NCBI RefSeq assembly: GCF_029227855.1 | Contig: NZ_CP074356.1 | Length of the DNA: 64,000 nt | DNA from: Escherichia coli | Lineage (GTDB): Bacteria; Pseudomonadota; Gammaproteobacteria; Enterobacterales; Enterobacteriaceae | Reading direction: 5' to 3' (one strand) | Position numbers and translations under genes: made by a program | Notes under the pieces: generated by a model | Seen by the model: the letters and a program-made list of their open reading frames with translations, nothing else | Databases searched by the model: none | What the model was told of the DNA's origin: nothing | Part shown: piece by piece, positions 14,162-34,254 of the stretch | Layout: each line of letters begins with the position of its first letter | Numbering within the stretch: position 1 is the first letter of the stretch

Positions 14162-14580
14162 CAGCGCATCGCCTTAACGACGTGGATCACCACACCAAAG
14201 ACATCCAGCGTATCTTCGCTACTGATGGTAATGGGTGAATATGCACTGTTCATGGGAATAAGCTGCACTGTCGGGCGTAGTTGCAATTTTTTCACCGTAA
14301 ACTCGCCGTCAACAGCAGCGATGACAATATCACCATGGCTGGCGGTAATAGCGCTATCGACAATCAGTAAATCACCGTCACTAATCCCACCGTCAATCAT
14401 AGAATCACCACTTGCTTTGACGAAGTAAGTCGCGCTGGGATGCTGGATCAACAGTTGATTCAGATCGATGCGCTGTTCAACGTAATCTGCGGCCGGTGAA
14501 GGAAAGCCACACTGAACAAGATCGCTAAATAGCGGAAAAGTCACAATTTCGCGGAGATCCGCAGGCTTGATAAACAACAT
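14161..14580 (-). CDS. umuD: DNA polymerase V accessory subunit UmuD (LexA-like self-cleaving)
   Basis: 139-aa [36 protein letters not shown]..., 1-nt overlap with umuC. Confidence 0.93.
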
Positions 14581-14599
14581 AATAATCTGCCTGAAGTTA

Positions 14600-14619
14600 T
14601 ACTGTTTTTATATACAGTA
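14600..14619 (-). promoter_or_regulatory. LexA operator (SOS box) of the umuDC promoter
   Basis: tactgtttttatatacagta = CTGT-N8-ACAG palindrome 20 bp upstream of the umuD start codon. Confidence 0.8.
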
Positions 14620-14951
14620 GTCTGTTCTTGCCAGCAGATCAATACTGATTCAGGCTATCAATATTTGTCGCTGCATAGACTGCTGATTTTTCGTTCTCTT
14701 ATCCTGTGCTCACGCGCCTTCTGGCGACGACGCTCATCCAGCAGAAATGAAAAATATCACCCGGCTAAAAAATAGAATAGAAGCATTCGCCATAATGACA
14801 TTAAACATTGTTTGATATTTATCATATTAATAGAAATAAAGACATTGACGCATCTCGCCCGCCTAACTATGAATTAGATGAAGTAAAATTCATTAATAGT
14901 TGTAAAACAGGAGTTTCATTACAATTTATATATTTAAAGAGGCGAATGATT

Positions 14952-15863
14952 ATGACTGAAATCGTTGCAGATAAAACGGTAGAGGTAGTTAAAAACGCAA
15001 TCGAAACCGCAGATGGAGCATTAGACCTTTATAATAAATATCTCGATCAGGTCATCCCCTGGCAGACCTTCGATGAAACCATAAAAGAGTTAAGTCGCTT
15101 TAAACAGGAGTATTCACAGGCAGCCTCCGTTTTAGTTGGCGATATTAAAACCTTACTTATGGATAGCCAGGATAAGTATTTTGAAGCAACCCAAACGGTG
15201 TATGAATGGTGTGGTGTTGCGACGCAATTGCTCGCAGCGTATATTTTGCTATTTGATGAGTACAATGAGAAGAAAGCATCCGCCCAGAAAGACATTCTCA
15301 TTAAGGTACTGGATGACGGCATCACGAAGCTGAATGAAGCGCAAAAATCCCTGCTGGTAAGCTCACAAAGTTTCAACAACGCTTCCGGGAAACTGCTGGC
15401 GTTAGATAGCCAGTTAACCAATGATTTTTCAGAAAAAAGCAGCTATTTCCAGTCACAGGTAGATAAAATCAGGAAGGAAGCGTATGCCGGTGCCGCAGCC
15501 GGTGTCGTCGCCGGTCCATTTGGATTAATCATTTCCTATTCTATTGCTGCGGGCGTAGTTGAAGGGAAACTGATTCCAGAATTGAAGAACAAGTTAAAAT
15601 CTGTGCAGAGTTTCTTTACCACCCTGTCTAACACGGTTAAACAAGCGAATAAAGATATCGATGCCGCCAAATTGAAATTAACCACCGAAATAGCCGCCAT
15701 CGGGGAGATAAAAACGGAAACTGAAACAACCAGATTCTACGTTGATTATGATGATTTAATGCTTTCTTTGCTAAAAGAAGCGGCCAAAAAAATGATTAAC
15801 ACCTGTAATGAGTATCAGAAAAGACACGGTAAGAAGACACTCTTTGAGGTACCTGAAGTCTGA
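14952..15863 (+). CDS. hlyE: pore-forming hemolysin E / cytolysin A
   Basis: 303 aa from ATG at 14952 (MTEIVADKTVEVVKNAIETADGALDLYNKYLDQVIPWQTF...). Confidence 0.92.
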   Translation: MTEIVADKTVEVVKNAIETADGALDLYNKYLDQVIPWQTFDETIKELSRFKQEYSQAASVLVGDIKTLLMDSQDKYFEATQTVYEWCGVATQLLAAYILLFDEYNEKKASAQKDILIKVLDDGITKLNEAQKSLLVSSQSFNNASGKLLALDSQLTNDFSEKSSYFQSQVDKIRKEAYAGAAAGVVAGPFGLIISYSIAAGVVEGKLIPELKNKLKSVQSFFTTLSNTVKQANKDIDAAKLKLTTEIAAIGEIKTETETTRFYVDYDDLMLSLLKEAAKKMINTCNEYQKRHGKKTLFEVPEV

Positions 15864-16069
15864 TAAGCGATTATTCTCTCCATGTACTCAAGGTATAAAG
15901 TTTATCACATTTAAAAACACAGCCGTTTTTTAAAGATTGAGAGTTACCTGTTGATAATAAGGTATCGGGTAACTCTCATTATGACAGAGCGCTTTCAAAA
16001 ACAGGGCTACGAAATGGCGAGCATCCAGACGTATATTAAGAAAGCCCCCATCAAAATCTATTAAATTTA

Positions 16070-16531
16070 TCACTGCGCCCAGTCAGGTTTATTTAAGATA
16101 TGATCCTGCCAGTCAATCACTTCTGATTCTTTCACTGCGATATGACGCACAGAGATACGTTCACCATGCATTGTTGCTTTCGAACCAGTAAGCAGCGGAT
16201 GCCACGCAGGTAAATCTTTACCTTCCGCCAGCAAACGATAAGCGCAGGTCATTGGCAGCCATTCGAATGTTGGCAGATTTTCACGGGTTAATTTAATGCA
16301 GTCGGGTTCAAACTCGAAACGACGTTCGTAGTTCCGACATTGACAGGTTTTAATATTGAGCTGGCGACAGGCGACGTTAGTGAAGTAGATTTCGTCGGTG
16401 TCTTCATCCATCAGTTTATGCAGGCAACACTGACCGCAACCATCACACAACGACTCCCATTCCGCATCGCTCATTTCGTCCAGGGTTTTACTTTGCCAGA
16501 AAGGTACATCGCTCATCAGGTGTTCCGCCAT
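16070..16531 (-). CDS. ycgN: UPF0260 family protein YcgN
   Basis: 153 aa from the internal ATG ([40 protein letters not shown]...). Confidence 0.82.
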
Positions 16532-16607
16532 TACGTTAAAACGCACCTTATAACCAGTCTGGCACAGCGATGCAAGTTTTGCCGCCGCTTTCAGGCGGCA
16601 AAAAGTA

Positions 16608-17267
16608 TTACAAAACGCGAGTTGTCAAAGAATGCCCATCGAAAGTGACTGTCAGCTCATCACCGCTTTGCAACGGGCCGACGCCATCAGGCGTGCCTGT
16701 CAACACAACGTCACCGGCCTTGAGGGTAAAAAACTTGCTCATATAAGCGATCAGCGAAACGATTTTATGGATCATGTCCGCAGTCGTACCTTGCTGGCGT
16801 TGTTCGCCGTTTACGCTCAGGCCCAGCGTTGTATTTTGCGGATCGCCGGTGAATTCCGCCGCGGGAATAAACCCGGAAAGCGGACAAGAGTTATCAAACG
16901 CTTTGGCCTTTTCCCACGGCTGCCCGGCTTTCTTCATTTTTCCCTGAACATCACGCAATGTCAGATCGAGCGCCACGCCGTAACCGGCAATGGCTTTACG
17001 GACATGCTCTTCCGTAGCCTGACGCAGCGTCGCGCCAATCAATACCGCCAGTTCGACTTCATGATGAACTGAACCGAAATCGGATGGGATCGCCAATGGC
17101 TGCCGCAGATCGCACAGTGCCGTTTCTGGTTTAATAAACAGCACTGGCTCTTCGGGCACTGCGCTGCCCATCTCTTTAATATGTTTGGCATAGTTACTGC
17201 CAACACAGACTACTTTACTCACCGGATAATCCAGCAGCGCACCTTGCCAGTTGTGATGTTGATACAT
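16608..17267 (-). CDS. ycgM: fumarylacetoacetate hydrolase-family protein YcgM
   Basis: 219-aa ORF with FAH-fold signature; conserved position. Confidence 0.87.
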
Positions 17268-17338
17268 AACGTTCCCCTCACCTTATCGTGGATATGAAAA
17301 CCCGCGCCGACAAAGATAATGCCACCGCCGGATATCGG

Positions 17339-17665
17339 TTATTTGTTCGTGTCGTCTGTTTTCTGCCCCATGACGGAAAGATGTTGCTTCAGCAAATCTT
17401 CGGGTGGTGGCGGTAACTGCAAATAGTAACCTTGCTCGGTTAATGCCTGTTTAACCTTTTCAATATCGGCATTGACCAGTTTCTTCCGCCCATCCAGCGG
17501 CAGAATCATCGCTAACTGAGGCTGACCAAAACCTTTCATCAGTTCCTCAGGTACACGCGAAAAATCGTCTTTTTTTTCGACATATAAATAGGTCTGGTCA
17601 CGCTTGCTGCTTCGATAAATCACACAAAACATACTTTTACTCTTTAAGATGGCAGGTTTTGGCAT
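17339..17665 (-). CDS. ycgL: YcgL (DUF709-type small protein)
   Basis: 108-aa ORF; position between ycgM and pliG. Confidence 0.82.
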
Positions 17666-34136: not shown

Positions 34137-34254
34137 TTTTCAGCATATTATTTCACATGATTTCAGTAAATCATCGTGAAAATGAATACGTTATGTTTAA
34201 ATTTAATCCACATTAAAAATAATGTTTCATTCAATTTAGCTGAAATCTTATTTA

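Follow-up and report, generated by a model that had tools for sequence, protein, structure and literature searches.

An inverted repeat between hlyE and ycgN

The window analyzed here is a 64-kb stretch of Escherichia coli DNA in which hlyE and ycgN face each other across a 206-bp intergenic region. The hlyE gene is largely silent under laboratory growth. No annotation is carried by RefSeq within the 206 bp, and no paper in the literature library searched names hlyE together with ycgN. A first-pass annotation had reported an inverted repeat between these convergent genes (gagagttacc-N19-ggtaactctc, 15939-15977), and both the gene arrangement and the repeat were found exactly as given there. 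Complementarity was perfect for one further base on each side, so that the arms measured 11 bp around a 19-nt spacer. The genes and the parts of the repeat, in window positions, were as follows.

14952-15863, plus strand: hlyE (clyA/sheA) coding sequence; the hairpin lies 75 nt past its stop codon
15938-15948: left arm, TGAGAGTTACC, the 3' half of the stem in ycgN-sense (minus-strand) RNA
15949-15967: 19-nt spacer, partly palindromic
15953-15956 and 15963-15966: inner 4-bp stem within the spacer, GATA and TATC
15957-15962: apical loop, 6 nt
15968-15978: right arm, GGTAACTCTCA, the 5' half of the stem in ycgN-sense RNA
16070-16516, minus strand: ycgN, coding for a cysteine-cluster protein of the YcgN family; its mRNA ends at the hairpin

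The whole 41 nt formed an extended imperfect hairpin in which the 11-bp stem was followed by an internal loop, the inner stem, and the apical loop. The predicted folding energy was -19.5 kcal/mol for the plus-strand (hlyE-sense) RNA, with a z-score of -3.7 against shuffled sequence, and -17.1 kcal/mol (z-score -4.6) for the ycgN-sense RNA. This is a stable stem-loop of the kind expected in an intrinsic terminator, with only 45% GC and a long composite loop. The first-pass annotation had further stated that the repeat was not followed by a T-run. This held for the plus strand (TTATGACAG), but on the minus strand the stem was followed by a short, interrupted run, ATCTTTA.

The arm sequence was unique within the window. 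If the window is modeled as a first-order Markov sequence, 11-bp arms that pair perfectly across 3-30 nt are expected 0.57 times per 64 kb, and about 0.002 times in the 206-bp intergenic region. The actual window held seven perfect inverted-repeat loci whose arms reached 11 bp or more and whose spacers did not exceed 30 nt, against the 0.57 expected. The other six, at 789, 4553, 26089, 34254, 45555, and 46743 (the one at 34254 having arms of at least 12 bp), are probably terminators.

Several smaller features were noted around the repeat. Two A/T runs form an imperfect inverted repeat around it (GTTTTTTAAAG at 15925-15935 and CTTTCAAAAAC at 15992-16002, 10/11 complementary), which was not used in the minimum-energy folds and whose left arm contains the mapped ycgN 3' end described below. 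A direct repeat (TATAAAGTTTATCAC at 15894-15908 and TATTAAATTTATCAC at 16059-16073, 13/15 identical) brackets most of the intergenic region, its second copy overlapping the ycgN stop codon; it is probably due to chance. The stretch from the repeat to the ycgN stop codon holds another long imperfect hairpin (GGGGGCUUUC...GAAAGCGCUC, 16017-16061, minus strand), which contains GUUUUUG and for which no published 3' end was reported. The left arm is also the annealing site of the PCR primer p79, used for clyA screening and sequencing. In the umuD-hlyE intergenic region, the Rfam C0299 sRNA family matched at 14640-14718 on the minus strand (107.7 bits, gathering score 40), a known K-12 sRNA candidate.

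The ycgN transcript ends at the foot of the hairpin

By coordinate mapping, the repeat corresponds to MG1655 positions 1229368-1229408. A published TRS analysis (PMC10687069), in which the signal equals one minus local readthrough, mapped 3' ends from two independent RNAtag-seq datasets of E. coli MG1655 grown in LB. The first dataset placed a plus-strand 3' terminus at 1229409-1229420, dominant at 1229415, with a signal of 0.83 and adjusted p values in three libraries of 1e-7, 2e-16, and 3e-6. The second placed it at 1229408-1229418, dominant at 1229414, with a signal of 0.81 and adjusted p values of 2e-9, 5e-4, and 4e-6. The terminus was attributed to ycgN as "Distant primary" with a 3' UTR of 140 nt, and the fold that the authors gave upstream of it, at -17.1 kcal/mol, was exactly this hairpin (PMC10687069). 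In the window the terminus falls at 15932/15931 on the minus strand, 6-7 nt past the stem and within the AUCUUUA tail. The transcript features on the minus strand were therefore placed as follows.

15852, minus strand: peak of a Rho termination region (MG1655 1229494), antisense to the hlyE 3' end; the position is coarse, being scored over 800-nt windows
15931-15937, minus strand: AUCUUUA tail after the stem, ycgN sense
15931-16069, minus strand: ycgN 3' UTR, about 139-140 nt from stop codon to mapped terminus

The first-pass annotation had suggested a processing or terminator structure shared by the two transcripts, which mapped 3' ends located elsewhere would have spoken against. For ycgN, the published terminus lies at the hairpin foot and bears the suggestion out. 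The repeat thus encodes the hairpin where the ycgN mRNA ends, which makes it an ordinary 3'-end or terminator hairpin and no new kind of element. It is unannotated, yet already visible in a published 3'-end table. No 3' end within the hlyE-ycgN intergenic region appears in the Term-seq tables of PMC7815308, which may be due to low expression. The TRS tables also contain a primary 3' terminus at MG1655 1228773 (plus strand), 36 nt past ycgM at a GC-rich hairpin (GCCGCC...GGCGGC), which suggests partial termination between ycgM and ycgN.

The U-tract is weak and a Rho signal lies downstream

We next consider how the ycgN 3' end is made. An intrinsic terminator carries a U-rich tract of 7-8 nt after the stem, and neither strand had one. 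The tail in the ycgN sense, AUCUUUA, has 4 U in 7 and a decaying U-tail score of -2.6, and the tail in the hlyE sense, UUAUGAC, has 3 U in 7 and a score of -3.3; canonical terminators scored -5.2 to -6.1 on the same scale. The score follows the TransTermHP method, with its cut-off of -2.5. This cut-off is reached by 27% of random tails, and the ycgN-sense tail clears it only narrowly. A consensus terminator scan of 15500-16400 found no terminator. An RNA 3' end 6-9 nt after the stem, as intrinsic terminators produce, was mapped in the ycgN sense; the data examined yielded no hlyE-sense 3' end. The same observations fit the pattern of Rho-dependent transcripts, in that a precise steady-state 3' end follows a stable hairpin directly and the tail is not U-rich.

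A Rho termination region was in fact reported on the ycgN-sense strand at MG1655 1229494 from a bicyclomycin dataset (PMC7815308), with its peak some 80 nt beyond the mapped ycgN terminus. The reads upstream and downstream of this position were 103 and 27 in untreated cells and 169 and 208 with bicyclomycin, with a Rho score of 4.7 (p = 4e-12; PMC7815308). From these counts the downstream-to-upstream ratio rose from 0.26 to 1.23 with bicyclomycin, a rise in readthrough. This effect could also come from new antisense starts inside the AT-rich, H-NS-silenced hlyE gene instead of readthrough, as the score spans 800-nt windows. Looked at for a C-rich, G-poor rut site past the hairpin, GC skew on the plus strand was about +0.17 at 15700-15850, meaning more C than G in ycgN-sense RNA, and near zero at 15800-15950. 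In E. coli, Rho-dependent transcripts end just past stable stem-loops without U-tracts, to which PNPase and RNase II trim them; loss of uridines can change the type of a terminator, and cases with weak uridine tracts may use both routes (PMC6061677). The terminator structure proposed in the first pass is therefore retained in part: the ycgN 3' end lies at the hairpin, but the weak U-tract and the Rho signal are not those of a classical intrinsic terminator.

The main alternative is that the hairpin is a weak but genuine intrinsic terminator for ycgN, maybe bidirectional, with direct release at AUCUUUA and Rho catching the readthrough. We consider this possible, though doubtful. Direct termination keeps some weight because the 3' end sits exactly at the release site of an intrinsic terminator, in the one stretch that contains U (4 of 7 nt). 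The TRS signals of 0.81-0.83 correspond to low local readthrough, a homologous hairpin in a divergent E. coli allele (see below) has canonical A- and U-tracts, and cases of mixed intrinsic and Rho-dependent termination are known (PMC6061677). However, the tail has few uridines and narrowly clears a cut-off that random tails often reach, the consensus scan called nothing, and bicyclomycin abolished the drop in coverage. The loop is also far above the TransTermHP limit of 3-13 nt, unless the inner stem is counted.

A second alternative builds on the convergence of the two genes. The hairpin, which can form on both strands and has no good U-tract, would fix the meeting place of the RNA polymerases from hlyE and ycgN, and release would follow from head-on and trailing collisions. 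With hlyE largely silent, polymerases should seldom converge here, and still the ycgN 3' end was seen in LB. In published work on this class (10.1101/2022.10.23.513370), such terminators are placed at hundreds of convergent E. coli gene pairs, with a stem-loop needed for defined positions, but they are described by the authors as Rho-independent, against the Rho signal found here. We regard a collision-type bidirectional terminator as quite improbable.

The repeat is conserved in E. coli and tolerates some variants

Conservation across strains had been named in the first pass as a check, and the element was found in about 5410 of the 5426 complete E. coli genomes. The 206-bp intergenic region was present in 5414 of these 5426 genomes, once per genome (median one place), at 95-100% identity, and the 68-nt core around the repeat was identical in 4331 of 5412 records. 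Since core-genome diversity in E. coli is low, this within-species conservation is weak evidence. Twelve matches to the intergenic region in the E. coli genome search fell on plasmid-typed records.

Variants were collected by variant-allele queries and by reading sampled loci. Two lay in the apical loop (G15961A, in 661 records, and G15962A), two in the right arm (G15968A, in 237 records, and G15969A, in 17), and one, T15982C, just outside the stem. Arm variants were present in about 5% of genomes. Both arm variants are C-to-U changes in ycgN-sense RNA, where a G·U pair is kept and the fold is unchanged (-15.2 and -14.5 kcal/mol, respectively), and both give C·A mismatches in hlyE-sense RNA. 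All sampled variants inside the element were thus either in the apical loop or C-to-U in the ycgN sense with G·U pairing kept. The strand asymmetry of the arm variants is suggestive, although with n = 2 it is not significant. Structural selection is unproven because no compensatory double changes were seen among the sampled variants.

In a few strains, hlyE and part or all of the element were lost through IS1-mediated deletions, and the element is therefore dispensable. In FELIX_MS533, the place of the AUCUUUA tail is taken by an IS1 end that adjoins the hairpin base (window 15934/15935). The PEC41 deletion takes the whole repeat, and only 16025-16069 is left.

The repeat could also be read as a functionless palindrome, a relic carried along with hlyE, with the nearby RNA 3' end incidental to it. 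Low core-genome diversity, the lack of covariation among the variants, and loss of the element in a few strains without obvious harm all agree with such a relic. However, chance would supply a repeat of this kind in the hlyE-ycgN region with an expectation of only about 0.002, the 3' end lies exactly at the hairpin foot in two datasets, and in the divergent allele described next the repeat is an island of identity amid flanks that cannot be aligned. We hold the relic reading to be unlikely.

A divergent allele carries the repeat with a better U-tract

The ycgN loci examined from Salmonella, Klebsiella, and a metagenomic relative had no hlyE, no umuDC, and no repeat; in all three, ycgN was followed by a TehB-like gene and/or dsbB. 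Hence hlyE and umuDC were inserted within the E. coli lineage. The metagenomic relative had a textbook bidirectional terminator directly past ycgN. In Salmonella, partial similarity was seen over about 60 nt directly after ycgN. Among hlyE homologues elsewhere, those of Trabulsiella and of another enterobacterial contig were followed by unrelated canonical terminators and not by this repeat, and Salmonella clyA had no repeat, only AAAATGAGAG being in common with the left arm region.

One homologous repeat was found beside a divergent hlyE allele, in E. coli SCPM-O-B-8794 (contig NZ_JAATUR010000009.1, 1-4128). Here hlyE is a chimeric, frameshifted pseudogene whose 5' part is E. coli-like and whose 3' half has about 81% nucleotide identity at aligned positions. 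Both arm cores of the repeat are identical to E. coli at 9/9 bases, and the loop is partly kept and 12 bases longer. The downstream DNA aligned to the window at 0.47-0.48, compared with 0.48-0.49 for shuffles, and the repeat was the exception. An A-run stands before the stem and, on the opposite strand, U6 after it, with a tail score of -5.4, and the element looks like a genuine bidirectional intrinsic terminator. This single comparison places the repeat at the 3' edge of the hlyE module and suggests that the E. coli copy is this stem with decayed U-tracts. Together with the ycgN loci that lack the repeat, it indicates that the element came in with the hlyE cassette.

Past the repeat, the SCPM-O-B-8794 contig continues with an IS3 remnant and two ORFs, one of 410 aa with unknown function and one of 278 aa that by eye was judged DNA methyltransferase-like. 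Apart from the IS3 remnant, this allele was absent from the 5426 complete E. coli genomes and from plasmids. A metagenome scan for repeats of this type returned 10 chance matches, which were unrelated and without hlyE, and two metagenome scaffolds with more divergent HlyE came from ordinary E. coli and carried the repeat as it is in the window.

The identity of the arms bears on another reading raised in the first pass, a protein-binding dyad. The repeat would then be a DNA site, with half-sites TGAGAGTTA and TAACTCTCA, at which a regulator or nucleoid protein binds, for instance one that helps to silence or activate hlyE. It is the arm sequence itself, and not just its pairing, that is identical in the divergent allele (9/9 per core) while the flanks are randomized, and the spacer there differs by 12 bp, near one helical turn. 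This comparison is of one divergent allele, and the proposal gained no positive support beyond the arm identity in it. No known motif was matched, the half-sites are 30 bp apart center to center, which is unusual for a dimer, and the spacer is itself palindromic, as expected of a hairpin. Furthermore, the element is already explained by the RNA 3' end mapped at the hairpin, and natural arm variants occur in about 5% of genomes. A protein dyad is in our judgment very unlikely. A broader version, in which a sequence-specific element travels with the hlyE toxin cassette, could involve a protein on the DNA dyad or RNA stem, or a programmed polymerase-collision site coupling hlyE silencing to ycgN expression; this would be a rather improbable arrangement.

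Promoters, genes, and repeat families do not explain the element

For a promoter, there was one 9/12 sigma-70-like match, TTTAAA-18-GATAAT, ending inside the loop; the region was no richer in such matches than shuffles, and the 12-bp loop indel of the SCPM-O-B-8794 allele would break any -35/-10 spacing. A 27-aa ORF (15981-16064, plus strand) has its ATG at 15981, right past the hairpin. It is unannotated, its start is lost in strain 74-2 (T15982C), and it is probably no gene. Two ORFs of 37 and 47 aa starting with TTG and GTG are likewise unannotated in RefSeq. A dispersed repeat or MITE is excluded by the single copy per genome. The only Rfam match overlapping the repeat, in a search of 14500-17500 at E values up to 10, was to mir-2076 (19.3 bits against a gathering score of 90, E = 1.8).

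Discussion

The reading we favor, at a probability of roughly one in two, is that the element is a stem-loop that defines the 3' end of the ycgN mRNA and protects it from exonucleases, with a decayed U-tract and with Rho doing most of the release. Transcription from ycgN would pass a 90-nt proximal 3' UTR and then make the hairpin, which would set the steady-state 3' end of the ycgN (ycgM-ycgN) mRNA. Because the U-tract is degenerate, most polymerases would probably not be released by the hairpin alone, and Rho would stop them over the next 100 nt or so, where transcription runs antisense to the hlyE 3' end. The RNA would then be trimmed back to the hairpin by 3'-to-5' exonucleases, the hairpin shielding the message. 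The mature RNA ends 6-7 nt past the stem, in AUCUUUA. Some direct hairpin-dependent termination may occur too. The ancestral form was presumably a canonical bidirectional intrinsic terminator brought in with the hlyE cassette. As judged from its symmetry and from the divergent allele, the hairpin probably also caps the hlyE mRNA when the silenced hlyE gene is expressed.

The closest known counterparts are the protective 3' stem-loops of Rho-dependent transcripts (Dar and Sorek 2018, PMC6061677). They share with the ycgN element a stable hairpin without a proper U-tract, a 3' end just past the hairpin, a bicyclomycin-sensitive region downstream, and a folding energy near that of intrinsic terminators. 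The ycgN hairpin differs in being longer than typical and in having an internal loop. Its tail keeps 4 U in 7, and it may be a mixed or transitional case; trimming by PNPase and RNase II at this locus would follow by analogy with the class. Bidirectional intrinsic terminators are alike in their convergent setting and in a symmetric hairpin usable on both strands. The SCPM-O-B-8794 homologue has the A-run before and the U-run after the stem that belong to them, and the metagenomic relative has one right past ycgN, whereas the U-tracts of the E. coli copy are degenerate on both strands, are not called by consensus scans, and stand beside a Rho-dependent region.

Two further systems are similar in part. 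REP/BIME elements are also extragenic 3'-UTR palindromes able to stabilize the upstream mRNA, but the ycgN element is single-copy, has no REP consensus, and matched no Rfam or repeat family. As for collisions between polymerases, the convergent partner hlyE is normally silent. Collision-dependent terminators (Ju et al. 2019, as cited in 10.1101/2022.10.23.513370) resemble the locus in the convergent gene pair and in a stem-loop unlike that of an intrinsic terminator, and differ in being described as Rho-independent.

The hairpin fixes the 3' boundary of the ycgM-ycgN transcript, with a 3' UTR of about 140 nt, and matters little beyond annotation. It also suggests where the hlyE mRNA should end. 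For the engineering of clyA/hlyE cassettes, it means that the hairpin is no strong stand-alone terminator. The locus would further offer a worked example of one stem that has good U-tracts in one lineage and decayed U-tracts in another, where Rho takes over, which fits the published switching of terminators through the gain or loss of uridines.
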